47,815 nucleotides of DNA from positions 26,037 to 73,851 of the forward strand of contig JASEFT010000002.1 in the NCBI GenBank assembly GCA_030018475.1. The letters are read 5' to 3'. Origin of the DNA: Thermoplasmatota archaeon (lineage in GTDB: Archaea; Thermoplasmatota; JASEFT01). Positions 12,779 through 32,561 of this stretch are shown here, piece after piece. Below the pieces are notes generated by a model. The model was given only the letters and a program-made list of their open reading frames with translations, was not told the DNA's origin and did no database searches. Position 1 is the first letter of the stretch, and each line of letters starts with the position of its first letter. The position numbers and the translations under genes are program-made.

Positions 12779-12779
12779 G

Positions 12780-13759: not shown

Positions 13760-13779
13760 CGAACTTGGATATTGGATAA

Positions 13780-14549: not shown

Positions 14550-14556
14550 AACAAAA

Positions 14557-15357: not shown

Positions 15358-15366
15358 TAAAAAAAA

Positions 15367-15945
15367 ATGGCAGAAGAGAAAGAAGAAGATTACAAAAAAA
15401 GAATAAAAGAGCTTGAAGCCAGAATAAAAGCGCTCGAAAAGGAAAGAGAAAAGCCTAAAGAAGAAGAGCCTAGTATTGTAGAAGGTGTTGTTTCTCAATT
15501 TATACCTGGCTTGAGCGGTATTATTAAGAGCTTAGAAAAGAGCTCCCCTGAATTTAGAAAGCGCATTGCAGAGACTGATGCCAAAATCAAGCATAGATTA
15601 GAGACTGGCTGGACAAGCAAGCCTAAAGTGGAGTATGGTGTCACTGTGCGCGAGCTTGTACCTGAGAAGAGGGAAAAAATAGAAATAAAGCCGAAGGAAG
15701 TAAAAGCTCCTACTCTCGAGCGTGAGCCAATTGTCGATGTTTTTGAAACTGAAAAATATATTTCTGTAATTGCAGAACTGCCTGGTGTTGAGGAAAGAGA
15801 AATAAAAACGAAACTTACTGAAGACGGGCTTGAAATTTCTGCGGGTAGATATAAAAAAATTATCAAGCTCCCTTCTAAGCCAAAAGCGATTGGTGAGAAA
15901 ACATACAAGCACGGCATCTTAGAGCTTAAAATAGATAAAAAATGA
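15367..15945 (+). CDS. Hsp20/alpha-crystallin-domain protein (GvpH-like)
   Basis: PIVDVFETEKYISVIAELPGVEEREIKTKLTEDGLEISAG...YKHGILELKIDKK. Coiled-coil K/E N-terminus. Confidence 0.6.
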   Translation: MAEEKEEDYKKRIKELEARIKALEKEREKPKEEEPSIVEGVVSQFIPGLSGIIKSLEKSSPEFRKRIAETDAKIKHRLETGWTSKPKVEYGVTVRELVPEKREKIEIKPKEVKAPTLEREPIVDVFETEKYISVIAELPGVEEREIKTKLTEDGLEISAGRYKKIIKLPSKPKAIGEKTYKHGILELKIDKK

Positions 15946-16027
15946 CAGAAGCCTTTCTTTCTTTTTAGAAAAAAGAAAGAAATCCTTCAGGGAAAGAAAG
16001 AAAAATAAGCCTAAAAATAGGATATAA

Positions 16028-16348
16028 ATGACTATTAATATTGACGAGAACAATCTAAAGCAAGGCTTGCTTGGCTTGGTAGTAGCGCTAGTCGAAGTAA
16101 TACAGGAAACGCTAGAAAGGCAAGCGCTTAGAAGAATGGAATCAGGAAGATTGACAGAAGAAGAAATTGAGCGACTAGGAAATGCATTAATGGAACTTGA
16201 TGAAGCGCTTGAGCACATAAAAAAAGAAAATAAAATTGAAGAAGCAGTAAAATCAGTGAGAAGCGGTCTTGATAATATAGCACACGAGCTCGTAAACAAA
16301 ATGGTCAATCCAGAGAAGTGGAAAGAGGAAGTTGAGGCAAATGCCTGA
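16028..16348 (+). CDS. gvpK: gas vesicle protein GvpK
   Basis: LLGLVVALVEVIQETLERQALRRMESGRLTEEEIERLGNALMELDEALEHI matches the conserved GvpK core (GL..LV..VVELL...E..A.RRMESG.L...EIERLG). Confidence 0.8.
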   Translation: MTINIDENNLKQGLLGLVVALVEVIQETLERQALRRMESGRLTEEEIERLGNALMELDEALEHIKKENKIEEAVKSVRSGLDNIAHELVNKMVNPEKWKEEVEANA

Positions 16349-17171
16349 AGAAGAGGTGGTAGTTGAAAAAGAGGCACTAGAAGCTCAGGAGGCTAGATAT
16401 CTTTATTGTATAATTAACTCTAGCGCTACCTCAGACTTTGGTGATATGGGGATAGAGGACAGCAAAGTTTACACTATACCTTGTAAAGACATTGCTGCAG
16501 TTGTGCATAAATGCGCTCCTAAGCCTTACAAATCAAAAGACGAGAATCTGGTGAAAGAATGGATTTTAGCGCATCAATATATTATTGACGAAGCCATGAA
16601 AAAATTTGGTACGCCAATACCTTTCACTTTTGATACTATAATTAAAGGTGATGATGACAAAGTAAAAGAGTGGCTAGCTGAAGATTACCCAACGCTTAAA
16701 GCCAAACTGGAAAAAGTCAAAGATAAAGCAGAATACACTGTTCAAATATTTTGTGAGCCTAATATTATTCTTAAAGAAATTGAGGCCCAAAACGAAGCTC
16801 TGAAGAAATTAAAAGAAGAGATCAAAACAAAGCCTAAAGGCATCGCTTATATGCTCAGCCAGAAATTAGAAAGAATGCAAAAAGAAGAGCTGATAAAGCT
16901 TGAGAATAATTATGTTAAAGATTTTTACGAGCAGCTAAAGAGCCTCGTTGACGAATGTATAGCAGAGCCTACAAACAAGCCAGTGCCTGAAAAATGGAAA
17001 GCTCAAAAGCTAATTTTAAATTTGGCTTGTCTAGTACATAAGGATAAAGTTGAGAAGCTTGGAGAAGAGTTAGGGAAGATTAATAAAACCCAAAAATTCA
17101 AGGTGAGGTTTACAGGTCCTTGGGCACCTTTCTCATTTGTCGGCAAAGAGCTTGGGGAGAAGAAAACTTGA
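16332..17171 (+). CDS. gas vesicle protein GvpF/L family
   Basis: The N-terminus YLYCIINSSATSDFGDMGIEDSKVYTIPCKDIAAVVH plus internal ILAHQYIIDEAMKKFGTPIPFTFDTII and the C-terminal [10 protein letters not shown] are typical GvpF/L. Overlaps gvpK by 17 nt. Confidence 0.75.
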   Translation: MRQMPEEEVVVEKEALEAQEARYLYCIINSSATSDFGDMGIEDSKVYTIPCKDIAAVVHKCAPKPYKSKDENLVKEWILAHQYIIDEAMKKFGTPIPFTFDTIIKGDDDKVKEWLAEDYPTLKAKLEKVKDKAEYTVQIFCEPNIILKEIEAQNEALKKLKEEIKTKPKGIAYMLSQKLERMQKEELIKLENNYVKDFYEQLKSLVDECIAEPTNKPVPEKWKAQKLILNLACLVHKDKVEKLGEELGKINKTQKFKVRFTGPWAPFSFVGKELGEKKT

Positions 17172-18160
17172 AAAAGGGTATATACATCTACGGAATAATT
17201 GAAGAGAACGGGAACAAAAGTTTCGGGCAAATTGGAATGGATAAGAGCGAAGTATATACTATTCCCTATCAAACTCTTGCTGCTGTCGTTAGCAACGTGC
17301 CTGCTATGGTATATCAACTTACTCCCGAAAATGCAAGGGCCCATGAGAACGTTATCAGAAAAGTTATGGAAGAGCGCTCAGTTATTCCTATGAGTTTCGG
17401 TACGGTCGCGAGCAATGGCAGCCAAGTTGAAAAGATTTTGAGTATTGGTTACAAGGTATTCAAATCCATGCTTGAAAGGATAGAAAATAAGATCCAAATA
17501 GATGTAAAGGTGCTGTGGGATAAAGATAAAATATACCTTGACATTTTGCGCGAAAACGAAAATATCAAAAGGTTAACTAGGAAAGCAGATAAGTCCCAAG
17601 AGGATAAAATAGAGCTTGGCAAGCTTGTCAACCAAGCGTTAGCTGAGAAAAGAGAATTTTATATTGGTGAGATAAAAAATGTTTTAGCCAATTTTTCAGA
17701 GCCGCCAAAAGAAAACAAGCTTACCGATGAAAGAATGATTTTGAACTTGGCTTATTTGGTTGATAAAACAAGAGAACAAGAATTTTATGACAGGGTAAAT
17801 GAGAAAGAGAGAAGTTATGAAGGCAAACTCCAGATAATCGCAGTGGGCCCCCTGCCTGCTTATAATTTTACTAAACTAGAATTAAAAAAGCTAGATTTTA
17901 AATTGATAGACAGTGCAAGAAAAATACTAGGGCTAAATGAAGAAATAACCAATGAAGAGCTTGAAGAAGCGCATCGAAAGCTTGCATATAGATATCATCC
18001 AGATAGAAATCCAAACGATGTGGCTTCAGAGCAGCAGTTCAAAAAAATTGAGAAAGCCTATATGATACTTGCTAGGTATTCCAAAAATTATCCTGCTGGA
18101 AAAATCTCGCTCAAGAAAGAAGATGTTGATAAAACCATTCTGATCCTGGAAAAAGAGTGA
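17120..18160 (+). CDS. GvpF/L-family protein fused to C-terminal DnaJ (J) domain
   Basis: GvpF/L core [39 protein letters not shown]...VGPLPAYNF. The C-terminal 70 aa [52 protein letters not shown] carry the HPD J-domain signature. An in-frame TTG at 17168, overlapping the upstream TGA, is an alternative start. Confidence 0.75.
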
Positions 18161-18165
18161 AAAAA

Positions 18166-20064
18166 ATGAGCAAGATCATAGGTATAGACCTGGGGACGAG
18201 TAATTCTGCAGCTGCCGTAATTGTAAATGGTAGTGTAAAAATAATACCTAGCGCGGAAGGTCTTGCTCTGCATGGTAAAATGTTCCCTTCAGTTATTACT
18301 TTTCTGGAAGAGGGGAAGGTAATAGTAGGAAAGGATGCAAAAAAATTAATGGCTCCTGGGCGCACGATAACAAACATCAAAAGAAAGATGGGTACTGATT
18401 ATAAAATAAAAATCGGTAAGAAATGGTATATCCCACAAGAGCTCTCAGCGCTTATTTTAAAGAAGATAAAAAAAGATGCAGAATTATATCTTAATGAATC
18501 TATAAAGAAAGCAGTTATTACTTGCCCTGCATATTTTAACGATAATCAAAGAACTGCAACGAGAGATGCAGGTGTTATCGCAGGCTTAGATGTTGTGCGC
18601 ATTATAAACGAGCCTACTGCAGCAGCTTTAGCTTACGGGCTAGATAAAACTAAAAGAAAATTGAATATCGCAGTTTTGGATTTAGGTGGTGGCACTTTCG
18701 ATGTTACTATTCTAGAAATGTGCAATTCTGTGTTTAGAGTTATAGCTACCTCCGGCGATACTCAGCTTGGCGGAATAGATATGGATAATAAAATTCTAGA
18801 TTATCTGGTTGATAAGTTAAGAGGAGAAGCGCTTGATTTAAAAGCCGAAAATCTCATGCAGGTATTAAGAAACGAGGCAGAAAAGGCAAAAATAAACCTA
18901 TCTTCTAAACTTTCAACAACCATAAATTTGCCTTTTACTAATGTAAATATAAATCTAACGAGGACTAAACTAGAAGAGCTGATTGAAGATGTAATTTCAA
19001 GAATGGATAAACCATTAGAGCAAGCATTGGCAGACTCGAATTTAGCTCCTAAAGATATCGATAAAATAATTCTGGTAGGCGGGCCTACAAAAATGCCGGT
19101 TATTAGAAAAAAGGTAAAAGAATTTTTCGGTAGAGTTCCTGAGCGCGGTATAGATCCTATGCACTGTGTTGCTGCAGGCGCTGCTATCCAAGGGAGCGTG
19201 CTTTCCGGTGAACTTGGTAATATTGCGCTCCTTGACGTTACACCGCTCTCATTAGGTATAGAGACTTCAGGCACTGTGTTCACAAGATTAATACACAGAA
19301 ATACTACTATCCCAGTAGAAGAGAGCAGAGTATTTACAACTGCACAGGATTTTCAGTCTGTAGTGCCAATCCATGTATTGCAAGGTGAAAGAGCGCTTGC
19401 GCACGACAATATAACTTTAGGCGTGTTTAATCTAACTGGAATAAAGCCTGCACCTAGACACGAGCCCATGATTGAAGTTACTTTCAGTATAGATGCTAAT
19501 GGCATATTACACGTCTCTGCAGAAGATTTGGAAACCGGTAAAAAGCAAGCAATCGAAATAACAGAATCGACAAGATTGCCTAAAGAAGAGATAAGCAGAA
19601 TGATCAACGAGGCAGCAGTGTTTGCAGAGCTGGATAAAAGAAAGGAAAATGAGATAAAGCTTCGCACTAGAGCAGAAGCGCTTATCTACGAGCTGGGCCA
19701 AGTAATAAAAAAAGAAAAGCTCCCTATTGACGAGAAAAGGAATATTACAACGCTTGTTAAAGAATTAAAGCACGCGCTAAGAGTTAATAATAATGAGCAA
19801 GTGAAGAGCGCTACTGAGGAATTGAATAAATTAGTAGATAGAATAGCATTAAGAAACAGAGCTGCTAACCGAGCAAACGCATTAATATCTTCGGCAAACA
19901 AAATGATTACAGAAATTAAAATTCCCAAAGCCGAAAAAGTGGCTATTGAGGAAATGATTGTGAAATTAAAAGAAGCGTTAAAGAATGATAACACTAAAGA
20001 AATCGAAAAGCAGATCGGTGAGCTGACTGAAGAATTGACTATATTAGAGGTAGATTATAAATGA
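18166..20064 (+). CDS. Hsp70/DnaK-family chaperone (divergent, gvp-cluster-embedded)
   Basis: [65 protein letters not shown] and [16 protein letters not shown] are canonical Hsp70 NBD motifs. The track start is GTG at 18157, overlapping the upstream stop; ATG at 18166 gives the canonical [11 protein letters not shown]. 632-635 aa. Confidence 0.9.
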
Positions 20065-20459: not shown

Positions 20460-20864
20460 ATGAAAACGAGACCGCCAATAGTTAGAACGTTAGATGCGCA
20501 TTTATATTCGCAGATAGCAGGCGAGTTGCGCAAGAGGCTACCAGGGAAGGTAATTATAGAGATTGATAGAGGAATGGATATGAAGGGAAAAAGTGTAGTT
20601 ACCTTACGATGTAGACATCCCGAAATAGCTAAAAAGACAATTGCAGAAGTGCTTGGTGAAGAATATATTGAGCCTGAGATAGGCGAGGATTTGCCGCAAC
20701 CTAGGCAATGGTGGCAGCGCTCTATTGATTCATGTATGGGCGGGGGAAGAGCTAGAGACGCTGGCGATCTAAGGAAGAGCATGTATATGTATGCAAAAAA
20801 ATTTCAAGCTGATACTGCAAAAGTTAGAGAAAGGATATATAAGAAAAAGAGAGAAATGAGATGA
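20460..20864 (+). CDS. hypothetical protein (shares a ~60-aa domain with next ORF)
   Basis: KVIIEIDRGMDMKGKSVVTLRCRHPEIAKKTIAEVLGEE parallels HVRVDIERTMSEKGEKIVEIWSMYPEIVKSAIEKVSGK of 20865..21086. Confidence 0.4.
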   Translation: MKTRPPIVRTLDAHLYSQIAGELRKRLPGKVIIEIDRGMDMKGKSVVTLRCRHPEIAKKTIAEVLGEEYIEPEIGEDLPQPRQWWQRSIDSCMGGGRARDAGDLRKSMYMYAKKFQADTAKVRERIYKKKREMR

Positions 20865-21086
20865 GTGAAGGGGAGCAAAATGACAAGAAAAGGGGTATTA
20901 GTTTGTAAGTTGCCTGATCATGTGTACAGAGCAAAGATTGGTGCAATAAGATCTCAATTCTCTCAGCATGTGAGAGTAGACATTGAGAGAACGATGAGTG
21001 AAAAAGGAGAGAAAATAGTCGAGATATGGAGTATGTATCCAGAGATAGTAAAGAGTGCGATTGAAAAGGTGTCAGGAAAGAGGTGA
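20865..21086 (+). CDS. hypothetical small protein (paralogous domain to 20460..20864)
   Basis: See previous entry. 73 aa, starts 1 nt after the upstream stop. Confidence 0.35.
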   Translation: MKGSKMTRKGVLVCKLPDHVYRAKIGAIRSQFSQHVRVDIERTMSEKGEKIVEIWSMYPEIVKSAIEKVSGKR

Positions 21087-21091
21087 AATAG

Positions 21092-21514
21092 ATGGTAGAT
21101 ATAAGTCCTCTAGAAGAGAGGGGAAAGGCTGAGCAGCAGAGAATAAAAGTACAAGCCAAAAGAGCCGAGGATAGAGCCAAACGCTCTGAAAAAAGAAGAA
21201 TTGCAGCAGAAAAATTACGAGAAAAGGCTGAGAAGTGGCGTAAAGAGATAGAGAAAAGAGAAGAAAATAGAATGGCGGCAGCAGAAAAATGGCGAGCAGA
21301 AGCAGAAAAGTGGCGACAAAAAACAGAAAGAGAACGTGAAGAAAGGGCGAGAGCCAGTGAGAAATGGAGAGCCGATGCGCAAAGAAGACATGAAGAGCGA
21401 GAAAGAAGGCATAGGGAGAGAAGAGAAGCTGCAGAAAAAAGAGAGGCAGAAGCAAGAAGGAAATCAGAGGAGCGAGGAACAGCCTATTTATCTCGTTCAA
21501 TGAGTCGTTGGTAG
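21092..21514 (+). CDS. highly charged E/R/K-rich repeat protein (AEKWR repeats)
   Basis: RIAAEKLREKAEKWRKEIEKREENRMAAAEKWRAEAEKWRQKTEREREERARASEKWRADAQRR is a periodic EKWR motif. Likely a single alpha-helix or coiled coil. Confidence 0.4.
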   Translation: MVDISPLEERGKAEQQRIKVQAKRAEDRAKRSEKRRIAAEKLREKAEKWRKEIEKREENRMAAAEKWRAEAEKWRQKTEREREERARASEKWRADAQRRHEERERRHRERREAAEKREAEARRKSEERGTAYLSRSMSRW

Positions 21515-21656
21515 GTGAGCCGGATGGTTACCTATGAAAAAGAAGAGGGAGCTATGGTGTCGCTATCTAAATGTAGCTAGAGGTGCGATTGAAAGAGCAT
21601 TAAAAATTAGAGGTATTGCGGACGATCTTGTTGAACATGATTAAGAGGCGAAATAA

Positions 21657-21740
21657 ATGGTAAACATAAGACCTAACAGAGGGCTGGAATGGAGCGCTTA
21701 AAGAAGAGGTTAGAAGATCGCAAGGAGCAGTGCAAGAAAT
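21657..21740 (+). pseudogene. degraded remnant of a GvpA-family (J/M-like) gene start
   Basis: ATGGTAAACATAAGACCTAAC encodes MVNIRPN, against MVNVRPA of ORF 13780. The following GCGCTTAAAGAAGAGGTTAGAAGATCG resembles GGCTTAAAAGAAGTTTTGGATAGG (LKEVLDR) of 13780 but is frameshifted, with a stop after 14 codons. Confidence 0.25.
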
Positions 21741-21824
21741 GATAGAAAGCAGTTTCGAACCTCGAAGCACAAAGCTCAATACTGTTCAGCCTTTATATGA
21801 AATAGGAAAAAAACAAAAAGGGGA

Positions 21825-22421
21825 GTGAAGTATATGGCAGAGTTATATAAGCCGAAATTAACACCAAAAAGGAGCCCAAAAGAAATTAAAGAAAGATTTA
21901 GGAAGGAGAAAAAGCGACATGCAGAAGCTCTAGAACGATTAAGAGAAGCAAGAAAAATCGAGCTAGAAAAGGTAGATGCTACAATTGAAGATGCGATACT
22001 TTATACCGACACATCTTGGTTTGTTGAAAATTTCGATAACTGCTATGAAATAAAGGATTTATGGGCAACGAGACCTAAACTTTATGGTGATACCGATGTG
22101 ATAGCTGTAACTTTAAAACCATCCGAGGGTAAGCCGATAACAGATATATTCCCAGTTGTGCTGAGATTTGACGGCACATTAGAACCCAATGCTACATCTA
22201 GAAGGTCGCGCATTAGAAGGAAAAGGCTTGAAAGTTTTCTAAAACACTATAAAATAACCGACAAAATAGAAGGTTATAGTATACCTGAAAGAATGAAAGA
22301 ATGGAAAAAGAAAAAAGTAAAAGTAGTTACCTACAAGGGACAGGATCAAATCTTTATCCCTAACCATCTAGTTAGATATCGTATGCCCAAAATGCCTGAA
22401 AAAATCAAAGAGGTGAAATAA
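21825..22421 (+). CDS. hypothetical gvp-associated protein (paralog of 9791..10168, with longer N-terminus)
   Basis: See 9791..10168. 198 aa. Confidence 0.5.
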   Translation: MKYMAELYKPKLTPKRSPKEIKERFRKEKKRHAEALERLREARKIELEKVDATIEDAILYTDTSWFVENFDNCYEIKDLWATRPKLYGDTDVIAVTLKPSEGKPITDIFPVVLRFDGTLEPNATSRRSRIRRKRLESFLKHYKITDKIEGYSIPERMKEWKKKKVKVVTYKGQDQIFIPNHLVRYRMPKMPEKIKEVK

Positions 22422-22577: not shown

Positions 22578-23156
22578 ATGAAGCCTACAAAAGATCTAGA
22601 ATGCACGCTTGTAGATGTGTTAGACAGAATTCTAGATAAAGGCATTATTCTTAATGCAGATGTTATTATCCACGTTGCAGGTGTGCCGCTGATCGGTATA
22701 AATTTAAGAGCTGCGCTCGCAGGTATAGAAACAATGCTTGATTACGGTATGATGGAAGCCTGGGATGCAAGTATAAGAAGCTGGTATGCAAAGGGGTATG
22801 CTGATAAAATAGCTGTGCCGTTGCAAGAAAACGAAAAAATTATACTCAAAACCTACGGCTCTTATTATAACGATGGCGGTATTTACTCTGCATGGCAGCA
22901 TGGCTATCTCTATCTTACAAACAAAAGATTATTTTTGTTTAGGAAAGAGCCTGCTAGAATGTTGTTTGAGACAGAGCTATTGAAAATAAGAAGTCTAGAG
23001 ATAAGTGAGAAAAACTATTTGGGAAAAAGCAGAGAAAATCTTTGCTTGTTATTAGAAAACAATAAAATTGCAATGCTTTATTCAGAGAACATAGAGGAAT
23101 TAAAGACTGCGATTAACAAACAAATAGAAATGCTACTAGCTGCAATAGAGCAATAG
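22578..23156 (+). CDS. GvpA-family N-terminal domain fused to C-terminal bacterial-PH (bPH/GRAM-like) domain
   Basis: The N-terminus [47 protein letters not shown] is a GvpA/J/M core. The C-terminus GYLYLTNKRLFLFRKEP...LLKIRSLEISEK matches the bPH_2-type motif (G.LyLTN.Rlif). Confidence 0.7.
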   Translation: MKPTKDLECTLVDVLDRILDKGIILNADVIIHVAGVPLIGINLRAALAGIETMLDYGMMEAWDASIRSWYAKGYADKIAVPLQENEKIILKTYGSYYNDGGIYSAWQHGYLYLTNKRLFLFRKEPARMLFETELLKIRSLEISEKNYLGKSRENLCLLLENNKIAMLYSENIEELKTAINKQIEMLLAAIEQ

Positions 23157-23577: not shown

Positions 23578-23937
23578 TTATTTTTTAGGCCTTTCCTTTA
23601 GCTTTCTTTTCTTCTTTTGGATTAATTCTTTATAAGCATCGTTAAGCTCTTTTAGCTGTCTAAAATGTTCTGATAAGATGCAGAGATACAGACCTTCTTT
23701 ACCTTTGAGCGGAAAAGGTCTATAGCCTGGAATGCTACCTCTGCCAATGATCTTTATGGCTTTAAGAGGTTTTAGTTTCTTGTATTCTTTGCACGCTTCA
23801 TTAACTTTCTGGAGTTTTTCAGCATGCTTTACAGATATAAAGAAATACAATCCTTTTTGTCTTCTAATTGGGAAAGGTTGCTCGCCACCCCTCTTACCGA
23901 TGATTTCGATCTTCCCCAGCGCTCCCACTTTCGCCAT
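23578..23937 (-). CDS. protein composed of two tandem copies of a ~45-aa novel domain (standalone paralog of the N-terminus of GvpF/L 30263..31753)
   Basis: IIGKRGGEQPFPIRRQKGLYFFISVKHAEKLQKVNEACKEY and IIGRGSIPGYRPFPLKGKEGLYLCILSEHFRQLKELNDAYKEL. Compare IIGKRSGEEPFSVSGQRGLYLYIRTEDFDKLSKINKLCKSL and IIGRGSFPGYRPFLVKGQEGSWLCILAEHFRQLKELNSAY in ORF 30263. Confidence 0.5.
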   Translation of the reverse strand: MAKVGALGKIEIIGKRGGEQPFPIRRQKGLYFFISVKHAEKLQKVNEACKEYKKLKPLKAIKIIGRGSIPGYRPFPLKGKEGLYLCILSEHFRQLKELNDAYKELIQKKKRKLKERPKK

Positions 23938-24059: not shown

Positions 24060-26306
<2,247 letters not shown>

Positions 26307-26939: not shown

Positions 26940-27326
26940 TTACCCGTAAAATTTTTTAGTATATTTCTCTTTTACTTCTTCAAGCTCTTTAATTGCTTTT
27001 TCTAAAGCTACTTTTTTATCGCTGAGCTTGGCTTGCAGTGCTTTGATCTCAGGTATGAGCTCTTCCTTTTTCTCTGGCGCTTTAGCCTTTAGCTCTCTCA
27101 TACTAGAAGTTATTTCCTGCACTTCTTTTAGCGCTTTCTCCAAAGGCTCCTTTTTCTGGATGAGCTCAACTTCCATTTCTTTAACAGCCTTCAATTTTTC
27201 TTCTACGCTCTCAATACCTGTGATTGGTTTTGTAGTAGTTTTCTCTTTAAATTCTTTGAGCGCTGCTTCAAGCTCGTCTTTTTTCTTTTTTAGCTCTTCT
27301 TCTAACTTTTCTACAGCTTCAGCCAT
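26940..27326 (-). CDS. coiled-coil protein with C-terminal KEKYTKKFYG motif (same family as 7795 and 10614 C-termini)
   Basis: 128 aa, K/E/L heptad-like throughout. The C-terminus matches KK[YF]x(2,3)F[YW]G. Confidence 0.5.
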   Translation of the reverse strand: MAEAVEKLEEELKKKKDELEAALKEFKEKTTTKPITGIESVEEKLKAVKEMEVELIQKKEPLEKALKEVQEITSSMRELKAKAPEKKEELIPEIKALQAKLSDKKVALEKAIKELEEVKEKYTKKFYG

Positions 27327-27346: not shown

Positions 27347-27523
27347 TTATTTTTTCTTTCTTCTCTTTGCAAGCGCAAGCTCTTTAGACCTATCTTTTAC
27401 CGTGGAATACCTCGTACCTGGACTCCTTGCTGTTGAATACAAAACAGAATATGTTGTTCCACTGCCCTTAACGCTACTTAACACTTTGTATTTTTTTGTT
27501 TTTTTCTTCTTTTCCTTTGCCAT
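27347..27523 (-). CDS. small lysine-rich ORF (58 aa) with strong SD, unannotated in track
   Basis: Minus-strand AAGGAGGGATAAAAAATGG. The translation MAKEKKKKTKKYKVLSSVKGSGTTYSVLYSTARSPGTRYSTVKDRSKELALAKRRKKK contains T-Y-S motifs like the TTYSPK repeats of ORF 11963. Confidence 0.35.
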   Translation of the reverse strand: MAKEKKKKTKKYKVLSSVKGSGTTYSVLYSTARSPGTRYSTVKDRSKELALAKRRKKK

Positions 27524-27571: not shown

Positions 27572-29533
27572 TCAGTCATATAATCCAGCTCCATACATAA
27601 CCTGAGCAAATTCTAGAAGCCCATCTACAGACCTAACCTCGTGTGGAAACAGAGGCATTTCAGTTATTGTAAAATTTGAAAATTTATTGTAGATATCTTT
27701 GACATAATCTAGCTCTCTTTCTGCTCGTGAGGCACAGAAACTGCAGCTGCTAAGGGGTGTGACTTTATTAATAACGATCTTATGCACAGGTATCTCAAGC
27801 TCCCGAAGCCTTTTAACTACGCGCTCTGTTTCAACAATACCCAGCTTCTCAGGAACTGTAACAACAACAAACTCAGTTCTACTCTCATCTTTTAAGAGAG
27901 AGATTAGGTTTTTAACAAGTTTCTTCTTGGTGAGCACGAGTTTCATACAATTGTAAAGAGAAACTATTTTTCGGTATTTCATCATGGTTTTGATAAGAGC
28001 GCTGAGCCAGTCCATAACTATCGCTGGAAGCTCGAGTAACTTTAACAAATGCCCGGAAGGAGCTGTATCTAAGATGAAAATATCGTATCTGCCTTCTTCA
28101 ATGAAGTCCATAATTTTAGTCAGGGCCATAAGCTCGTCTAAACCAGGTGGCGAGAGCTCTAGAGTTCTATCGAACATTTTTCTATCAAATGGCAAGTCTA
28201 TACCTGCACCACCAGTGATGAACCCTTCGAATATTTCGTCGATCTCTTTCTTATATGTTTGCTTAAATTCGTTTAATGCCTCGTCTGCATCCATTGCTAC
28301 AGCATACAGGTTTTCCTTTATCTGCAGCGGCTCTGTACCTATCAGCAAATCAAAACTCCTGCCTAGTGCCTGTGCTGGGTCGGTAGAAAAAATCAATATT
28401 TTCTTGTCAGGCAGCATTTTAGCAAGCTGTAGCGCGGTTGCAGCTGCTACGGTTGTTTTCCCTAACCCTCCTTTACCACCAAAGAGGTATAACTTGCGAG
28501 TACCATCAAACTTAATTTTCGGTCCGGGGGTTGGTGATATTTGTTCAGGTCCGTATCTCTTGATTAACTCATACTTGTATGATTTTCCAGAAAGAACTTC
28601 GCCGAACTTCTCGAGATTGCTTAACCCTTTAACTTCGTATGGTAACAAAGGGCTTTCGAGAATGTTGTGATTCGGGAATAAATTCTTGAGCTGCTCAATA
28701 TATTTTTTCTGCTTTTCAGCTCTAGATCTGCAAAAATCACATTCAGTAGATTGGTTAACTAGATTAACGATGATATTCTTTACGTTAATTTTATTCTTCT
28801 CGATGGTCTCGAGAAGTAATTTAGTCTCCTCCACACCCATTGATTCAGGTATTGTTACAGGCACAAATTCTGTCTTTCTAGGATCTGAGAAAAACGCTCT
28901 TATATTTTTCACATCTCTTATTTGCTGCTCTAAAAACCAATCCATTTCATCTTTTGGTAACTTTTTCCGTGCAAAGGTAGATCTTATATATCTGTGTTTA
29001 GCTTGCATTATACCTAAAATCTCAGCAAAGTCTTCTAACAGTTTGGGTAGGGAGAAGAAGCGCATCAAATGCCCTGTCGCTGCGGTATCTATTATGAAGA
29101 CATCGTAGGTATTCTCTTCTTTCATAAAATCTATGAGTTTCCGTACAGCCATGAGCTCGTCCATGCCTGGTATCGAAAGCTCGAAAAATCTTTCTAGATC
29201 TTGTGTATCGAGATAAGTGCCCCTATCTACTATGGTTTTAATGTATAGCTCGTTTTTTTTCTTGTATTCCCTTACAAGTTCTTCGGTATTTACTTCTAAA
29301 CCCCAGAGATTTTCATTAAGTTTAGTAATACTGCCACCGATCGTGCATTCGAATATATCTGAGAGTGAATGGGCAGGGTTTATCGAGACAAGCAAGGTTT
29401 TTCGGGCTTGTTTTGCTGTCAGTAGCGCTACCGCTGCAGCACATGTAGTTTTACCTACGCCACCTTTCCCGCCAAAAAATATGAGCTTTAAGTCTTTATC
29501 GCATAAAAAACTAGGTAATTCTTTAGTAATCAT
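27572..29533 (-). CDS. ArsA/GET3-family tandem (duplicated) P-loop ATPase
   Basis: Two halves each have GGKGGVGKTT/GGKGGLGKTT P-loops and DTAATGHLMRF / DTAPSGHLLKL switch-II signatures, plus CxxC pairs (ECDFC, SCSFC). 653 aa. Confidence 0.9.
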   Translation of the reverse strand: MITKELPSFLCDKDLKLIFFGGKGGVGKTTCAAAVALLTAKQARKTLLVSINPAHSLSDIFECTIGGSITKLNENLWGLEVNTEELVREYKKKNELYIKTIVDRGTYLDTQDLERFFELSIPGMDELMAVRKLIDFMKEENTYDVFIIDTAATGHLMRFFSLPKLLEDFAEILGIMQAKHRYIRSTFARKKLPKDEMDWFLEQQIRDVKNIRAFFSDPRKTEFVPVTIPESMGVEETKLLLETIEKNKINVKNIIVNLVNQSTECDFCRSRAEKQKKYIEQLKNLFPNHNILESPLLPYEVKGLSNLEKFGEVLSGKSYKYELIKRYGPEQISPTPGPKIKFDGTRKLYLFGGKGGLGKTTVAAATALQLAKMLPDKKILIFSTDPAQALGRSFDLLIGTEPLQIKENLYAVAMDADEALNEFKQTYKKEIDEIFEGFITGGAGIDLPFDRKMFDRTLELSPPGLDELMALTKIMDFIEEGRYDIFILDTAPSGHLLKLLELPAIVMDWLSALIKTMMKYRKIVSLYNCMKLVLTKKKLVKNLISLLKDESRTEFVVVTVPEKLGIVETERVVKRLRELEIPVHKIVINKVTPLSSCSFCASRAERELDYVKDIYNKFSNFTITEMPLFPHEVRSVDGLLEFAQVMYGAGLYD

Positions 29534-29567: not shown

Positions 29568-29852
29568 TCATCCTAAAATATCCATTCTTTTATTAAGATT
29601 CATACTGTTTACGCGGTTGGCTATTTTTAAGTTATGATTGAGCACATTGTTCCTTCTCTCATACTCTTCTTTAGAAATCTCGCCAAACTCATATAGGAGC
29701 CTGTTTTCTTTTAGCTGGTCGTTAATCTTATCAGGATTGTACACTTCTTGCAGTGTATGGTCTCTTATCTGCTCTACCAGCCAGATCATATCAAACGGTG
29801 GTATTGATATTCCGAGCATACGCAGAAATGCATCGTCTACAAAAAACGGCAT
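29568..29852 (-). CDS. gvpG: gas vesicle protein GvpG-like
   Basis: MPFFVDDAFLRMLGISIPPFDMIWLVEQIRDHTLQEVYNPDKINDQLKENRLLYEFGEISKEEYERR matches the GvpG pattern (L..L...A.E.YD...I...L.EL...YE.GEISEEEY...E..L). Confidence 0.6.
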   Translation of the reverse strand: MPFFVDDAFLRMLGISIPPFDMIWLVEQIRDHTLQEVYNPDKINDQLKENRLLYEFGEISKEEYERRNNVLNHNLKIANRVNSMNLNKRMDILG

Positions 29853-29860: not shown

Positions 29861-30262
29861 TCACCTCCTTATCCTATATCTTGGTTTTTTACCTTTTTTA
29901 GTCCCTTTCTTTTTTAATTGCAGGGCGCGATCAAACTCATCTATAATTTCGGACCTTCTTCTCTCATATTTTTCTTTTGTTATTTTACCAGATTCGTAAA
30001 GTGTCTTAATTTCTTTAAGAGGCTTTTCTAAAGACTTAGTAATTTCAAGTCTTTTCGAGAGCTCAGAGTTTATTTTCTCATAATCTTCTTTAGTTATCTC
30101 CTCTGCCTCATAAAGCAACTTGTTTTCTTCAAGCGCAGCTTTGATTTTTTCAGGATCGTAAACTTCTAAATAAGCAAGATCTCGTATTTTTTTAAGTATT
30201 TGAGTAGAGAGCTCGGTAGTAGGTTCGATAAGAAGCTTGTATGCTAGATATGAGAAGACCAT
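29861..30262 (-). CDS. GvpG-like protein (second copy, with duplicated YE-GxITKExYE motif)
   Basis: LAYLEVYDPEKIKAALEENKLLYEAEEITKEDYEKINSEL and LYESGKITKEKYERRRSEI. Confidence 0.5.
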   Translation of the reverse strand: MVFSYLAYKLLIEPTTELSTQILKKIRDLAYLEVYDPEKIKAALEENKLLYEAEEITKEDYEKINSELSKRLEITKSLEKPLKEIKTLYESGKITKEKYERRRSEIIDEFDRALQLKKKGTKKGKKPRYRIRR

Positions 30263-31753
30263 TTAGCTCACCTCTTTTCTTCCGACTTCTATACCTTTTG
30301 CACCGATCTTGACGCATACAAAACTATAGGGCGGCCAGGGCCCGGAATATTTAAGTATCAGATCCTTATATCTTTCGCTTAGTTGCCCAATTTCTTTAGA
30401 GAAGTCTTTTATTTTATGCTTGGGGACTAGGTAAGAGGCGTTTAGAATCAGCCTATCGCTAAACAATCTGCCTCTGACCGCTTCCGCAGCTTTTTTAGTG
30501 AGTGTATTGAAAATTTTTTCTCCCTCATTCTTAAGCTTTATCTTCTTCTTATCATCTAAAGATTTCACGGCCTGCTTAGGCACGATAGCTTTTACGCCCA
30601 GTTCGACTTTGTTATCTATCAATTTTGTACATTCTTTTAGAGCCTTATAGGCTTTTTTTATTAACACCCTTAGGATTTTCGGATTCTTGAAAACCTGTCC
30701 AAACGCAGCAGGAACTATAGAATACTTTTCTAACACTTTTCTTACAACTCCTTCGTGCGTTCTGGAATATTCTTCGGTCACAGAATAGTCTTTCACAGGC
30801 GTATCGCTAACAACTGCTGCTAAATCTTTGTAATTAATTGTATAGACCCTGCTTCCATCGCCTATTCCAATATTTCCAAACCTTATTTCTTTTTCAGGTG
30901 CAGGTATTATGCCGTAGAGATATTTACCTTCCGGGACTTTTAGTTTGAGTTTTCTTTCAGCTTCTGATTTAGCATAGCTTGCGAGCTCTACAGCTTTTGG
31001 TATTAGTTTGATAGTTTTATCATATTTTGCAGCACTAAATACTTTCTTTATTTCAGCGAACGATTTCTCCACTTCTTGCATTATCTCAGGAACATATTTT
31101 AGCGCTTTTGCTTCCCTAGCTTCTTCAACTGCTTTTCTCAGACTTGTCAATGCATTCTTTGCCTTTTTCCTCTTTTCTTCTACTTTCTTCTTCCGTACCT
31201 CTTCCAGTTTAAGCTTCCTTTCTTCTTCAAGCCTTCTTTCTTCCTCTAATTTCTTCTTCCGCTCAGCTTCTCTCTTCTTTCTCGCTCTTTCAAGTTTTTT
31301 CTTCCTTTCTTCCTCAAGTAATCTTTTCTCCTCTAATTTTTTTCTAAGCTCAGCTTCGCGCCTCTTTCTCTCGGCTTCCTTCCTTCTCTCCTCCACTTCC
31401 AAAACCCTGCGGTATGCAGAATTGAGCTCTTTTAACTGCCTAAAATGCTCTGCAAGAATACAAAGCCAAGAGCCCTCTTGGCCTTTAACCAAAAAAGGTC
31501 TATAGCCTGGAAAAGAGCCTCTACCGATAATCTTTACACTCTCAAGAGTTTTGCCAGCGAGTTCAGGTAAAGACTTGCACAGCTTGTTTATTTTGCTCAG
31601 TTTATCAAAATCTTCAGTTCTAATATAGAGATAGAGACCTCTCTGTCCACTTACTGAAAAAGGTTCTTCTCCACTTCTCTTACCAATAATTTCAAGCTTT
31701 TCAAGAGGCTTTAATTTTATCCTAGCCATTCCCTCACCAGTTGCTTTACTCAA
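30263..31753 (-). CDS. GvpF/L-family protein with N-terminal tandem novel domain and E/R/K-rich coiled-coil linker
   Basis: The C-terminal 250 aa are GvpF/L (YLYGIIPAPEKEIRFGNIGIGDGSRVYTINYKDLAAVVSD...YSGPWPPYSF). The N-terminal 115 aa are the duplicated domain shared with ORF 23578. The middle ~90 aa are an ERK repeat. Confidence 0.7.
   Translation of the reverse strand: MSKATGEGMARIKLKPLEKLEIIGKRSGEEPFSVSGQRGLYLYIRTEDFDKLSKINKLCKSLPELAGKTLESVKIIGRGSFPGYRPFLVKGQEGSWLCILAEHFRQLKELNSAYRRVLEVEERRKEAERKRREAELRKKLEEKRLLEEERKKKLERARKKREAERKKKLEEERRLEEERKLKLEEVRKKKVEEKRKKAKNALTSLRKAVEEAREAKALKYVPEIMQEVEKSFAEIKKVFSAAKYDKTIKLIPKAVELASYAKSEAERKLKLKVPEGKYLYGIIPAPEKEIRFGNIGIGDGSRVYTINYKDLAAVVSDTPVKDYSVTEEYSRTHEGVVRKVLEKYSIVPAAFGQVFKNPKILRVLIKKAYKALKECTKLIDNKVELGVKAIVPKQAVKSLDDKKKIKLKNEGEKIFNTLTKKAAEAVRGRLFSDRLILNASYLVPKHKIKDFSKEIGQLSERYKDLILKYSGPWPPYSFVCVKIGAKGIEVGRKEVS
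31195..31400. repeat. ~105-bp imperfect tandem duplication within the E/R/K linker-coding region of ORF 30263..31753
   Basis: Two consecutive ~35-codon units encode LEEKRLLEEERKKKLERARKKREAERKKK and LEEERRLEEERKLKLEEVRKKKVEEKRKK. Confidence 0.4.
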
Positions 31754-32561
31754 CTGTCTTTCTATTCAGCTCTACAGACTGCAAAAACTTACTCAAAAAC
31801 TTGCTGGCTTGCACATGCTCGTTAAGTATACCTCTTATTTTAGGCTCTGCACCTTTTGGAGGTTTGTAGAGCTTTGTTTTAACTTTATACTCGCATTTCA
31901 GCAAGCCTTTTTCTTCTAGCGAATGGAGCAGGGGATAAATTGTGCCAGGGCTTAGCAAGATGTTAAATTCTTTATGCACAGTCTTTATTATATCTGTACC
32001 GCACATAGGCTTGTTAAGTATTAATGCTAGGACGATAGTCTCAAGCTCGTTTTTAACAAATCTCTCTATAAACTCGTCTGAGATATTTGACTTGTCAAGC
32101 GTTTCCGAAGAAAGAACAGTGATATCGCTAGCTGTAAGCATGAGTTTGTCATGGCATTCCACTAACTCTTTTATAATCTTAGGGTCGAGCTTAGAGGCGT
32201 CATAGGTGCATAACATAAGCTGGTTTTTGCCTGCTCTCGCAAGACTCTTCTCTATTTTCAAATGCTCCTCTTTATCTATGGAGCCTGCATCTACGAGAAT
32301 TCTCAGTTTGTCGTTAAAGTTAATTCTACCAAGCCCACTAGGCTTGATAATAGAAATATCGAAATTCAATCCTTTAAGCTCTTGAGATACTGCATCAGGT
32401 TCGTCATTAGTTATATAAACTACCTTTTCATCTTTAGCTGCAGAGCCTATGAAAGGCGCATGAATTGCATATTTGTTCACATCAGGTGTATACAAATGCA
32501 AAGTATGCTTTGCTATAGCAGAAAGAATTGTATTTATCGCCGATATTTTGCCTTCTTCCAT
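31746..32561 (-). CDS. KaiC-like (P-loop-degenerate) domain fused to C-terminal PadR-type winged helix; candidate gvp regulator (paralog of 5895..6911)
   Basis: C-terminus NELETIVLALILNKPMCGTDIIKTVHKEFNILLSPGTIYPLLHSLEEKGLLKCEYK. The N-domain has RecA-like strand/helix alternation without GK[ST]. Confidence 0.55.
   Translation of the reverse strand: MEEGKISAINTILSAIAKHTLHLYTPDVNKYAIHAPFIGSAAKDEKVVYITNDEPDAVSQELKGLNFDISIIKPSGLGRINFNDKLRILVDAGSIDKEEHLKIEKSLARAGKNQLMLCTYDASKLDPKIIKELVECHDKLMLTASDITVLSSETLDKSNISDEFIERFVKNELETIVLALILNKPMCGTDIIKTVHKEFNILLSPGTIYPLLHSLEEKGLLKCEYKVKTKLYKPPKGAEPKIRGILNEHVQASKFLSKFLQSVELNRKTVE

Follow-up and report, generated by a model that had tools for sequence, protein, structure and literature searches.

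Passages of Castillo and Saier (2010; PMC2963123) describe two-domain ArsA homologues in bacterial gas vesicle (gvp) operons (their Clusters 4 and 6), with examples from cyanobacteria, Chlorobi, Bacteroidetes, Geobacter and Acidobacteria, and there the authors proposed that the ArsA homologue serves to 'energize' a step of gas vesicle (GV) biogenesis. The cyanobacterial ArsA homologues are reported to co-evolve with gvp genes (PMC5464585), and in our literature search these two studies were the only ones to make the ArsA-gvp link; the search returned no experimental test of it and no paper joining 'gas vesicle' with 'Get3'. A tandem arrangement of two ATPase halves is also found in the Get3 protein ArsA1 of Chlamydomonas, which is reported to target tail-anchored proteins (PMC11170914).

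The gene described here is an archaeal member of the gvp-linked group and lies in a 47,815-nt stretch of DNA from the metagenome-assembled genome (MAG) of a Thermoplasmatota archaeon, a stretch referred to below as the window, within the following co-directional array of genes.

31746..32561, minus strand: MEDS-PadR regulator, the first gene of the minus-strand array; the same gene is in the same place in the homologous loci L001, L003 and L167
30263..31753, minus strand: GvpF/L-family protein with an N-terminal repeat domain (Pfam GvpL_GvpF, E 6e-40), which heads a GvpF/L-GvpG-GvpG-ArsA module
29861..30262, minus strand: second GvpG paralog with a SHOCT-like tail (Pfam GvpG, E 1e-17)
29568..29852, minus strand: GvpG directly upstream of the tandem ATPase, with a 34-nt gap (Pfam GvpG, E 1e-14)
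27572..29533, minus strand: tandem (pseudo-dimeric) Get3/ArsA-family ATPase, 653 aa, ATG start
27347..27523, minus strand: uncalled 58-aa basic ORF directly downstream of the tandem ATPase, with the ribosome-binding site GGAGGG ahead of it
26940..27326, minus strand: 128-aa coiled-coil protein downstream of the tandem ATPase (the 'FYG' gene, ending in ...KKFYG)
24060..26282, minus strand: CDC48-family double-ring AAA+ ATPase, co-directional and 1.3 kb downstream (TIGR01243, 1066 bits)

A sequence-only reading of this DNA had placed the ATPase gene in the minus-strand gvp array, with two GvpG genes on one side and the FYG coiled-coil gene on the other, and both the position and the neighbors are borne out by the profile matches. 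The order GvpG-then-ArsA is kept in L001, L003 and L167, the 58-aa basic ORF is conserved in L001 (E 5e-14) and L167, and the L001 ortholog of the FYG gene lies directly upstream of CDC48. The cluster also encodes several chaperones, namely Hsp70, a GvpL-DnaJ fusion, an Hsp20-like protein and CDC48. A search for hydrophobic C-terminal segments among the proteins of the gvp region found no C-terminal transmembrane tail and no tail-anchored protein, and the most hydrophobic 17-residue windows in the cluster are in the GvpA-type domains and GvpK (mean Kyte-Doolittle ∼1.8-2.0).

The product of the gene is identical over its full length (100%) to an NCBI protein named 'ArsA family ATPase [Candidatus Thermoplasmatota archaeon]'. 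Pfam ArsA_ATPase (PF02374) matches the 653-aa protein in two stretches (E 3e-146, 486.8 bits vs a cut-off of 24.3), and the NCBIfam profile TIGR00345 (GET3_arsA_TRC40) gives it 454.5 bits vs a cut-off of 135, which places it in the Get3/TRC40/ArsA superfamily. Two homologous halves, 37% identical to each other (domain bounds at residues 2-329 and 335-652), are connected by a linker (residues 328-335) that is modeled with low confidence. That two ATPase halves are fused here, and that a deviant Walker A, a switch II and a CxxC pair recur in both, had been recognized in the sequence-only reading, and the alignments agree on every motif.

28544..29533, minus strand: N-terminal half, residues 1-330; 30% identical to yeast Get3 and 33-34% to M. 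thermautotrophicus Get3
29444..29473, minus strand: deviant Walker A of the N-half, GGKGGVGKTT, residues 21-30
29378..29380, minus strand: Asn52 of the N-half (in SINPAHS), which aligns with Asp57, the catalytic residue in yeast Get3
29069..29089, minus strand: switch II of the N-half, DTAATGH, residues 149-155
28877..29068, minus strand: post-switch-II helical subdomain of the N-half, residues 156-219, of Get3-like length, hydrophobic and Met-poor
28730..28741, minus strand: CDFC of the N-half, residues 265-268, which aligns with Cys285/Cys288, the zinc ligands in yeast Get3
27572..28528, minus strand: C-terminal half, residues 336-653
28451..28480, minus strand: deviant Walker A of the C-half, GGKGGLGKTT, residues 352-361
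28379..28381, minus strand: Asp385 of the C-half (in STDPAQALG), the catalytic Asp being kept
28049..28069, minus strand: switch II of the C-half, DTAPSGH, residues 489-495
27881..28048, minus strand: post-switch-II helical subdomain of the C-half, residues 496-551
27734..27745, minus strand: CSFC of the C-half, residues 597-600, the second CxxC pair, in the place equivalent to that of the N-half

The signature lysines Lys23 and Lys354 are invariant in all 116 homologs aligned, and the CxxC of both halves is kept in at least 114 of them (the CSFC cysteines in 114-115 of 116). The position of Asn52, by comparison, is Asp in 106/116 and Asn in only the 10 closest relatives. This is a natural 'D57N'-type change that probably leaves the nucleotide site of the N-half degenerate, and because Asn sits at the catalytic Asp position, this site is probably unable to hydrolyze ATP.

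Both halves are much closer to the Get3 of archaea and eukaryotes than to ArsA, also as regards the CxxC and the length of the helical subdomain. By sequence, the top PDB entries are Chlamydomonas ArsA1, Giardia Get3 and the archaeal Get3 structures 3zq6 and 3ug6 (E 1e-48 to 1e-67), with E. coli ArsA at E 1e-27 only, and the mean identity of the halves is 34% to archaeal Get3 vs 26-28% to the halves of true ArsA. The helical subdomain after switch II spans 63 and 56 residues in the two halves vs 68 in Get3 and 44 in true ArsA, and its hydrophobic fraction is 0.45-0.48 vs 0.35 in ArsA; that of the C-half is ∼7 residues shorter than that of the N-half, an asymmetry kept across the family. In an AF2 model (pLDDT 85, pTM 0.83) there are long helices at residues 153-188, 196-215, 493-519 and 527-548, and each half superposes on Get3, including Get3 with bound tail-anchor helices (TM 0.82-0.86, 30-36% identity). 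The groove region is not Met-rich, with 3% Met in the gvp-linked halves vs 8.5% in archaeal and Asgard Get3, and client binding by the tandem ATPase may thus differ from that of Get3.

The identity of an arsenite-pump ArsA was considered and rejected. The protein falls below the curated ArsA equivalog cut-offs (201 bits vs 650 for TIGR04291, and 286 vs 800 for the haloarchaeal NF041417). In an alignment that used Klebsiella ArsA from an arsRDABC operon as the reference, the glycines of PGMDE and PGLDE (the Get3 motif PGxDE) occupy the positions of the metalloid-binding Cys113 and Cys422 (E. coli numbering), and a helical insert stands where ArsA has its Cys172 loop. As the sequence-only reading had remarked of arsD, arsB and arsR, ars genes are missing nearby: no ArsB, Acr3, ArsR, ArsC or ArsD domain and no second ArsA-like ORF were found among the scanned ORFs of the window, and the gene calls of the homologous loci L001, L003, L004 and L167 list no arsD, arsB/ACR3 or arsR. 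The true ArsA of Klebsiella and Halorubrum, on the other hand, are found in arsRDABC or arsD-arsA-ACR3 contexts.

The linkage of the tandem ATPase to gvp genes is conserved across phyla. Relatives with 27-68% identity are present in gvp clusters of many archaeal and bacterial phyla, and the homologs at 62, 60, 48, and 44% identity share the GvpF/L-GvpG-ArsA module. In a genome scan, two or more Gvp families flank the gene at 33 of 47 tandem loci from several phyla, and 13 of the 28 gvp loci of at least 9 kb that were seeded independently on GvpA contain an ArsA-like gene; both figures, which hold among the matches listed, are samples and not censuses. Co-occurrence with gvp clusters had been proposed as a check in the sequence-only reading. 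The nearest recognized upstream neighbor is GvpF/L or GvpG at 37 of 64 gvp-linked loci, and the nearest downstream one is a GvpA-family gene at 19 and CDC48 at 14 (also among the matches listed). About half of the sampled gvp clusters are without an ArsA-like gene (among the matches listed), and they include those of L088 and L092, two very close relatives in which GvpJ comes right after GvpG, so the gene is dispensable in principle. To our knowledge, the well-studied gvp clusters of Halobacterium, Priestia (Bacillus) megaterium and Serratia have no such gene either. In several cyanobacteria the same tandem clade adjoins CDC48 with no gvp gene within 10 kb, and the one cyanobacterial member examined for it (L038) is without the CxxC.

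In a neighbor-joining tree of the separated halves, N-halves and C-halves form two mirrored groups that include the bacterial gvp-linked proteins, and the C-half is closer to the matching half of the window ATPase in 42 of 45 proteins and the N-half in 29 of 45. The tree suggests one ancestral fusion, separate from that of ArsA, which we put forward as a suggestion because the deep nodes are poorly supported (bootstrap of 16% for the N-half/C-half split and 26% for the true ArsA clade). Shallow clades have high values, with 90% for the gvp-linked single-domain proteins, 100% for the cyanobacterial proteins, 100% for the split pairs, and 98% for the N-half of the window ATPase together with L001 and L003.

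The longer homologs P0118 and P0085 have N-terminal extensions built of a repeated domain of ∼100 aa, and the resemblance of this repeat to GvpO is sub-threshold (Pfam E 0.07 and hhalign E 0.056 in a Rosetta-stone search).

We propose that the tandem ATPase serves hydrophobic Gvp proteins as an ATP-driven holdase of the Get3 type and is an accessory factor dedicated to GV formation, an assignment in which our confidence is somewhat better than even. Membership of the family, the rejection of a pump function and the link to gvp genes come directly from the data; the client, the zinc site, hydrolysis at one site and the hand-off steps are inferred. That the cluster encodes no tail-anchored protein counts against the proposal. 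What is a homodimer in Get3 would be one polypeptide here, and the two CxxC pairs would probably bind a single zinc ion between them where the halves meet. With ATP bound and the clamp closed, the helical subdomains of both halves would build a hydrophobic groove in which a hydrophobic, aggregation-prone stretch of a Gvp protein is shielded. Candidate clients are members of the GvpA/J/M family or GvpG, by way of its hydrophobic N-terminus; the gene for GvpG adjoins that of the ATPase. Hydrolysis would open the clamp and free the client at the growing vesicle, probably onto GvpF/L-GvpG; in the archaeal subclade, with Asn in place of the catalytic Asp of the N-half, the intact site of the C-half alone would hydrolyze ATP. 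The CDC48 unfoldase, which we suspect to be a functional partner of the tandem ATPase, may form part of the same proteostasis network as Hsp70, the GvpL-DnaJ fusion and the Hsp20-like protein. Gas vesicles are bounded by no lipid membrane, and no Get1/2-like receptor is known for them, which also counts against a Get3-type reading.

More tentatively, the ATPase and the CDC48 of the cluster could together constitute a membrane-free 'GET-like' delivery and extraction pathway for the wall of a proteinaceous organelle, in which GvpA-family subunits or GvpG are held in the groove and fed into, or retrieved from, the GV shell. We consider such a pathway possible but doubtful; if it is true, this would be the first Get3-family chaperone with clients other than membrane proteins, and it would supply a missing mechanistic step of GV assembly in roughly half of the sampled gvp clusters (among the matches listed).

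The protein might instead be a nucleotide-dependent switch or scaffold resembling MinD and ParA, in which closure upon ATP binding times, nucleates or positions GV assembly, for example by recruiting GvpF/L-GvpG, and no unfolded client is held. The deviant Walker A with its signature lysine is typical of dimer-switch ATPases, the degenerate N-half site (Asn52) would suit a slow switch, and at most loci the gene comes after GvpF/L or GvpG (37/64, among the matches listed). Pfam CbiA, ParA and AAA_31 do match, but weakly, and models of the CbiA, ParA and MinD type score 36-66 bits vs 487 and 454 for the ArsA/Get3 models. The long hydrophobic helical subdomain that is kept here is one that MinD and ParA are without. 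The C-terminus, moreover, is the terminal helix of the Get3 fold in the model, with no membrane- or DNA-binding element of the MinD/ParA type and no amphipathic membrane-targeting helix beyond it, and we regard a pure switch as unlikely.

The proximity of CDC48 might reflect a role in quality control or recycling instead of primary assembly, in which CDC48 would extract GvpA-type subunits from collapsed or mis-assembled vesicles and the Get3-like protein would capture them for re-use or degradation, in parallel with the eukaryotic Msp1-to-GET hand-off. Many gvp/ArsA loci have CDC48 in their flank, in all single-domain lineages as the immediate neighbor, and in the cyanobacteria mentioned above ArsA and CDC48 stay paired with no gvp gene close by. 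The two genes also co-occur in the GvpA-seeded loci (both in 11, ArsA alone in 2, CDC48 alone in 6 and neither in 9, among the matches listed; Fisher p = 0.024), a statistic that has no phylogenetic correction and is built on incomplete contigs and related lineages. Disaggregation chaperones are induced by GV collapse in Dolichospermum (bioRxiv 10.64898/2026.05.31.729101), but ArsA and CDC48 are not mentioned among the induced genes, and CDC48 is ∼7 kb distant in Acidobacteria-type clusters. On balance, recycling as the main function of the protein strikes us as rather improbable.

That the gene encodes an ordinary housekeeping Get3 for tail-anchored membrane proteins, merely sited in a gvp cluster, would be consistent with its Get3-like motifs and fold and with the tail-anchor targeting by the tandem Get3 of Chlamydomonas, but it is very unlikely. 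Canonical Get3 of the single-domain type, archaeal and Asgard, fall into a clade of their own, where 0/11 loci (among the matches listed) have a gvp context, the gvp linkage of the tandem family recurs in many phyla, the groove is without the Met-richness of a generalist Get3, and the gene is present or absent among near-identical clusters. Finally, an arsenite/antimonite pump ATPase or a decayed remnant of an ars operon, as could be read from the tandem A1-A2 architecture, the 'ArsA family' annotation and the ArsA structures that are the top full-length Foldseek matches (TMq 0.69, 21% identity), is effectively refuted by the equivalog scores, the lower identity to ArsA halves than to Get3, the glycines and missing loop in place of the ligand cysteines, the absence of an ars context and the gvp linkage across phyla. 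Of the two readings between which the sequence-only reading had not chosen, therefore, the unrelated arsenic-resistance remnant falls, while a role in handling Gvp proteins fits the sequence, fold and context.

A Get3-type clamp is a concrete and testable candidate for an unexplained step, namely how the very hydrophobic GvpA-type proteins are kept soluble and inserted into the growing GV, and it is encoded in about half of the sampled gvp clusters, mostly beside GvpF/L-GvpG and often with CDC48 close by (among the matches listed). As far as we know, heterologous GV constructs such as acoustic reporter genes omit the tandem ATPase gene, and the Get3-like and CDC48 genes could be added to them. 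Such constructs are reported to cause proteotoxic stress (PMC12848028). The assignment also corrects a recurrent mis-annotation by which gvp-linked ATPase genes are tallied as arsenic-resistance genes in genome and metagenome surveys, an example being Nodularia nsp15480, directly after the gvp genes (PMC3610870).

Among proteins of known structure, the ArsA of E. coli R773 (1F48) and Leptospirillum (9NBW) have the tandem A1-A2 fold and a similar switch II (DTAPTGH) in common with the window ATPase and give the best full-length overlap, in the closed state (TMq 0.69-0.70, 20-21% identity), and they top the full-length Foldseek search because they are the only two-domain chains available. They differ in having no CxxC, a helical subdomain shorter by ∼20 residues, an ars operon context and the Cys113/Cys172/Cys422 site that is absent here. 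The mycobacterial BagA/BagB (Rv3679/Rv3680, 6BS3) are a Get3-like heterodimer of the same fold, and their arrangement is resembled by the split two-gene pairs L066, L073, L075, L079, L081 and L083 of the genome scan, but BagA/BagB form a clade apart from the window ATPase, with no gvp context, and the latter scores 102 and 130 bits vs the BagA and BagB NCBIfam cut-offs of 400 and 521. The tandem pseudo-dimeric Get3 of Chlamydomonas reinhardtii, ArsA1 (5ZME/5ZMF), gives the strongest sequence match in the PDB (E 3e-67), and its two halves are fused in the same way; it is, however, a eukaryotic, chloroplast-directed tail-anchor targeting factor, its halves have no CxxC where the window ATPase has one (sequence alignment), and the poor whole-chain superposition (RMSD 16 Å) is probably due to a difference in conformation.

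Each half of the window ATPase is 33-36% identical to archaeal Get3 (M. thermautotrophicus 3ZQ6 and M. jannaschii 3UG6; TM 0.75-0.86), with the P-loop, the switch I PGxDE, the CxxC and the long helical subdomain in common (switch II is DTAPTGH in Get3), but archaeal Get3 is a single-domain homodimer with a Met-rich groove and no gvp context, whereas the window protein is fused and asymmetric. It is closest in setting to the gvp-linked homologues described in the passages of Castillo and Saier (2010), in being about 640 aa with two domains and in lying inside a gvp cluster, among gvpF/L, G, J, K, M, N, O and hsp20, with no arsR, arsB or other ars gene. The ArsA-gvp association has hence been known in bacteria since 2010, and the window ATPase is an archaeal addition to it (Thermoplasmatota, with relatives in Methanocellales) that differs from the bacterial cases in those passages by the Asn at the catalytic Asp position of the N-half. 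The Get3-type reading, with a CxxC zinc motif and a client-binding subdomain, is not made in the same passages, and the new details, as read from the sequence, are the natural Asp-to-Asn change at the predicted N-half catalytic site and the methionine-poor groove.

We propose that the tandem ATPase of the ArsA/Get3 family encoded in the gas-vesicle (gvp) region is a clamp of the Get3 type, fused into one chain and devoted to making gas vesicles, which is the best-supported reading of its sequence, modeled fold and gene neighborhood. Its gene lies in an extensive gvp region with a tight, co-directional minus-strand array, in which MEDS-PadR, GvpF/L, GvpG and GvpG precede the ATPase (with gaps of 0, 8, and 34 nt from GvpF/L onward) and small ORFs and CDC48 follow it.

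Features of the gvp region (coordinates, strand, feature)
5895-20064, plus: gvp array with MEDS-PadR, two gvpA, two GvpN, GvpO, two GvpJ/M-type genes, an Hsp20-like gene, GvpK, GvpF, a GvpL-DnaJ fusion and an overlapping Hsp70 gene
5895-6911, plus: MEDS-PadR regulator heading this array
17120-18160, plus: GvpL/F protein with C-terminal DnaJ (J) domain, gene overlapping the Hsp70 gene
18157-20064, plus: full-length Hsp70 gene inside the gvp cluster
22578-23156, plus: GvpA-PH fusion (GvpA-type and PH/GRAM-like domains; Pfam Gas_vesicle E 8e-16)
23578-23937, minus: 119-aa ORF resembling a stand-alone paralog of the GvpF/L two-repeat unit
24060-26282, minus: CDC48 family double AAA+ ATPase, with two small ORFs before it and two after it at the array end
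26940-27326, minus: 128-aa coiled-coil protein, after the 58-aa ORF
27347-27523, minus: 58-aa basic, lysine-rich ORF next after the ATPase gene, with GGAGGG ahead of it
27572-29533, minus: tandem ATPase, 653 aa
29568-29852, minus: GvpG, directly ahead of the ATPase
29861-30262, minus: GvpG
30263-31753, minus: extended GvpF/L
31746-32561, minus: MEDS-PadR regulator heading the minus-strand array

Several of these neighbors recur in other gvp loci. The GvpL-DnaJ fusion gene is also present in L001, L004, and L167, with an Hsp70 gene adjoining in L001 and L167, and because the fusion overlaps or adjoins Hsp70 genes this suggests that Hsp70 is recruited to a GvpL assembly hub. GvpA-PH, whose bPH_3 and Vps36 matches in Pfam are weak, has homologs in L001, L004, L010, L013, and L057, and MEDS-PadR also stands ahead of the GvpF/L-GvpG-ArsA module in L001, L003, L087, and L167. 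By eye, the extended GvpF/L begins with two copies of a ∼55-residue repeat (IIGKRxGExPF...GLY...F..L) followed by a Lys/Glu-rich coiled coil; neither this two-repeat unit nor the similar 119-aa ORF has a match in Pfam or NCBIfam. The 58-aa ORF falls below the 60-aa threshold used to list ORFs, and its motif GSGTTYSxLYSTARSPGTxYS is kept in L001 (9475-9612, E 5e-14, an uncalled gene) and L167 (8299-8445). Three DUF835 proteins and a KaiC-like ATPase (1710-5495) lie immediately upstream of the gvp region.

The tandem ATPase is identical to the database protein 'ArsA family ATPase [Candidatus Thermoplasmatota archaeon]' and contains the Pfam ArsA_ATPase domain twice (E 3e-146), with bounds at residues 2-329 and 335-652 according to the domain model built for this analysis and 37% identity between the halves. 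All of the motifs that an earlier sequence-only reading had named for this gene are present, as read from the sequence and alignments.

Motifs of the tandem ATPase (residues, half, motif)
21-30, N-half: deviant Walker A, GGKGGVGKTT
352-361, C-half: deviant Walker A, GGKGGLGKTT
149-155, N-half: switch II, DTAATGH
489-495, C-half: switch II, DTAPSGH
265-268, N-half: CxxC pair, CDFC
597-600, C-half: CxxC pair, CSFC

The closest solved structures by sequence are the Chlamydomonas tandem Get3 ArsA1 and the Get3 proteins of Giardia, M. thermautotrophicus and M. jannaschii, and compared with these the match to E. coli ArsA is weaker by 20-40 orders of magnitude. In pairwise alignment with yeast Get3, the sequence of which was checked residue for residue against PDB 2WOJ, the N-half is 30% identical and its CDFC falls on the zinc ligands Cys285/Cys288. 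AF2 gives a confident model (pLDDT 85, pTM 0.83). Over the full chain it superposes best on closed-state ArsA (TMq 0.69-0.70, 21% identity), the only two-domain chains available for comparison being ArsA structures and Chlamydomonas ArsA1, and each half matches Get3, including Get3 bound to a tail-anchor helix, at TM 0.82-0.86 and 30-36% identity. The helical subdomain after switch II, which forms the client groove of Get3, has 63 residues in the N-halves and 56 in the C-halves of the gvp-linked family, compared with 68 in Get3 and 44 in ArsA. Its hydrophobic fraction is 0.45-0.48 (0.40 in Get3, 0.35 in ArsA), but methionine makes up only 3% of it versus 8.5% in Get3, and such a Met-poor aromatic/aliphatic groove would suit a dedicated client over a broad client range.

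The two nucleotide sites differ. The N-half reads SINPAHS, and Asn52 aligns with yeast Get3 Asp57, the residue altered by D57N in 9NS5, an ATP-bound complex; D57N is the standard hydrolysis-deficient Get3 mutant. This position is Asp in 106 and Asn in 10 of 116 homologs, the Asn carriers being the tandem ATPase itself and nine of its ten closest relatives (P0003-P0011). In the N-half nearly all of these ten relatives have DTAATGH or its variant DMAATGH, and in the C-half DPAQALGRS or DPVQALGRS together with DTAPSGH. Because Asn52 replaces Asp in the N-half and the C-half retains the catalytic Asp385, the pseudo-dimer probably has one site that only binds nucleotide and one that hydrolyzes it, and so would be asymmetric.

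We envisage that ATP binding would bring the two halves together around a zinc site that they share, that the helical subdomains would form a hydrophobic groove in this closed state and shield a hydrophobic Gvp segment, and that hydrolysis at the C-half site would free the client where assembly takes place. Within the cluster, hydrophobicity is highest in segments of the GvpA, GvpJ/M, GvpA-PH, and GvpK proteins; it is moderate at the N-terminus of GvpG, and the ATPase is linked to GvpF/L-GvpG through gene order. The Hsp70, J-domain-GvpL, Hsp20-like, and CDC48 genes that surround the ATPase gene indicate that gvp clusters encode their own proteostasis network. The handling of hydrophobic Gvp proteins offered in the sequence-only reading is supported by family, fold and conserved context, from which the role itself is predicted. 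Weak points of a Get3-type model are that gas vesicles have no membrane and that the gvp cluster encodes no tail-anchored protein. A nucleotide switch or scaffold, the first of the other roles considered, appears unlikely.

The gene neighborhood recurs outside the window. The module of PadR, GvpF/L, one or two GvpG and tandem ATPase lies inside the gvp clusters of L001 and L002 (environmental contigs, homologs 60% identical), L167 (a Methanocellales MAG, 62%) and L003 (an 'archaeon' MAG, 48%). In L004 the homolog (44%) has GvpO on one side and a GvpJ/M gene on the other, and its cluster includes CDC48, GvpL-DnaJ, Hsp20, and a second, divergent tandem copy 8.5 kb downstream (20541-22034). An ATPase-seeded scan of a genome collection returned at least 80 loci, whose six-frame ORFs were scanned with the Gvp proteins of the window. 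Co-occurrence with gvp clusters, suggested earlier as a check, was borne out: among the matches listed, 33 of 47 tandem loci have two or more Gvp families in the flank and three have one. The 11 without Gvp are seven cyanobacterial loci, two short contigs and two from a divergent Myxococcota/deltaproteobacterial branch, and the phyla listed include Chloroflexota, Acidobacteriota, Planctomycetota, Verrucomicrobiota, Gemmatimonadota, Patescibacteria, Cyanobacteria, and Altiarchaeota. Across all 64 gvp-linked loci among the matches listed, the nearest recognized upstream gene is GvpF/L or GvpG in 37, and the nearest downstream gene is GvpA-type (19), CDC48 (14) or GvpF/L (10).

In an independent GvpA-seeded sample of metagenome contigs (at least 28 loci of at least 9 kb), 13 of the 28 listed have an ArsA-like gene and 17 have CDC48. 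The gene differs even between closely related archaeal clusters with GvpA 91-94% identical to that of the window, as it is present between GvpG and GvpJ in L087 and absent from L088 and L092, which points to recent gain or loss. Because it is absent from about half of the gvp clusters sampled among the matches listed, including these near-identical ones, a further weak point of the model, its predicted role is that of an accessory or enhancing factor, not a core one.

Single-domain relatives form a separate clade (bootstrap 90%) likewise embedded in gvp clusters, in Chlorobiaceae, Bacteroidota, Pirellulales, Nitrospinota, Spirochaetales, Patescibacteria, and Dehalococcoidales. Among the matches listed CDC48 directly follows the single-domain gene throughout, except in L080 (Dehalococcoidales), where one Gvp family and no CDC48 were found nearby. 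CDC48 is a recurrent member of gvp clusters (loci L043-L056, L038 and L046), and in cyanobacteria, too, it directly follows the ArsA/Get3-like gene. Four cyanobacterial MAG loci (L024, L030, L037, L042) have the tandem gene adjoining CDC48 with no gvp gene in the 10-kb flanks; this pair, a weak point of a role dedicated to gas vesicles, has either its gvp genes elsewhere or a separate function. CDC48-coupled recycling after vesicle collapse is, in our estimate, quite unlikely. A housekeeping Get3 is highly improbable; among the loci listed, the canonical Get3 of Methanobacteriaceae, Asgard archaea and Altiarchaeales have no gvp context, nor do a Haloarcula single-domain protein and BagAB-like split pairs.

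Two further observations concern partner domains. P0118 (936 aa) and P0085 (784 aa) are tandem homologs with N-terminal extensions of a repeated ∼100-aa domain (…VGRxVKLNRANGGWxAQIEPWEEIR…) that could reflect fusion to a partner domain and resembles GvpO only below threshold (Pfam E 0.07, hhalign E 0.056). The L167 cluster encodes a 158-aa protein (11163-11639) that weakly matches PF17886 (ArsA_HSP20), the Hsp20-like domain fused to some ArsA/Get3 proteins, a hint that Get3-like proteins and Hsp20-like domains may be connected.

An arsenite pump or its remnant is excluded. The protein scores 454 bits against a cut-off of 135 for the NCBIfam GET3/ArsA/TRC40 subfamily and misses the ArsA equivalog cut-offs by far (201 vs. 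650 and 286 vs. 800 bits). When aligned by halves with two true ArsA proteins from ars operons (Klebsiella arsRDABC; Halorubrum arsD-arsA with ACR3), the positions of ArsA Cys113/Cys422 are the glycine of PGMDE/PGLDE, the Get3 switch I motif, and the Cys172-bearing loop is replaced by a longer helical insert. E. coli-type ArsA lacks CxxC, whereas the tandem ATPase has one in each half. On average the halves are 26-28% identical with true ArsA; the figure rises to 34% for archaeal and Asgard Get3 and to 36-40% for the gvp-linked single-domain relatives. The ORFs scanned elsewhere in the window contain no ArsB, ACR3, ArsR, ArsC, or ArsD domain and no second ArsA-like ORF, so the absence of ars neighbors stated previously holds there, and the arsenic-resistance remnant also considered then is rejected on these scores, missing ligand cysteines and context.

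In a bootstrapped NJ tree of 141 half-domains, the N-halves of the gvp-linked tandem proteins group together, as do their C-halves, and the two groups mirror each other in internal topology; the true ArsA halves cluster together near the split pairs. Because of this arrangement a single ancient fusion, separate from that in ArsA, is likely for the gvp-linked lineage, with low bootstrap at the deep splits (16-26%). The half-by-half identity test agrees only in part with a single fusion, as the C-half is nearer the tandem ATPase's C-half in 42 of 45 proteins and the N-half nearer its N-half in 29 of 45.

Castillo and Saier (2010; PMC2963123) place two-domain ArsA homologues of ∼640 aa in operons with gvpFGJKLMNOW and hsp20 in cyanobacteria, Chlorobi, Bacteroidetes, Geobacter, and Acidobacteria, report no ars genes there, and propose that the ATPase energizes a biogenic step. 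In a cyanobacterial co-evolution study an ArsA protein falls in the gas-vesicle cluster of co-evolving genes (PMC5464585). Our literature search found no paper pairing Get3 with gas vesicles and no experimental test of a gvp-linked ArsA-like gene. Such genes are often mis-annotated and genome papers still count them as arsenic resistance, as with Nodularia nsp15480, directly after gvp genes nsp15380-15470 (PMC3610870). The tandem ATPase is a concrete and widespread candidate for an unexplained step of gas-vesicle assembly. While the cases of Castillo and Saier are bacterial, it is a new archaeal member of that known, uncharacterized group, to which the present analysis adds its reading as a Get3-type protein, a probably degenerate site in the N-half, a groove poor in methionine, an estimate of prevalence and the recurrent partnership with CDC48.
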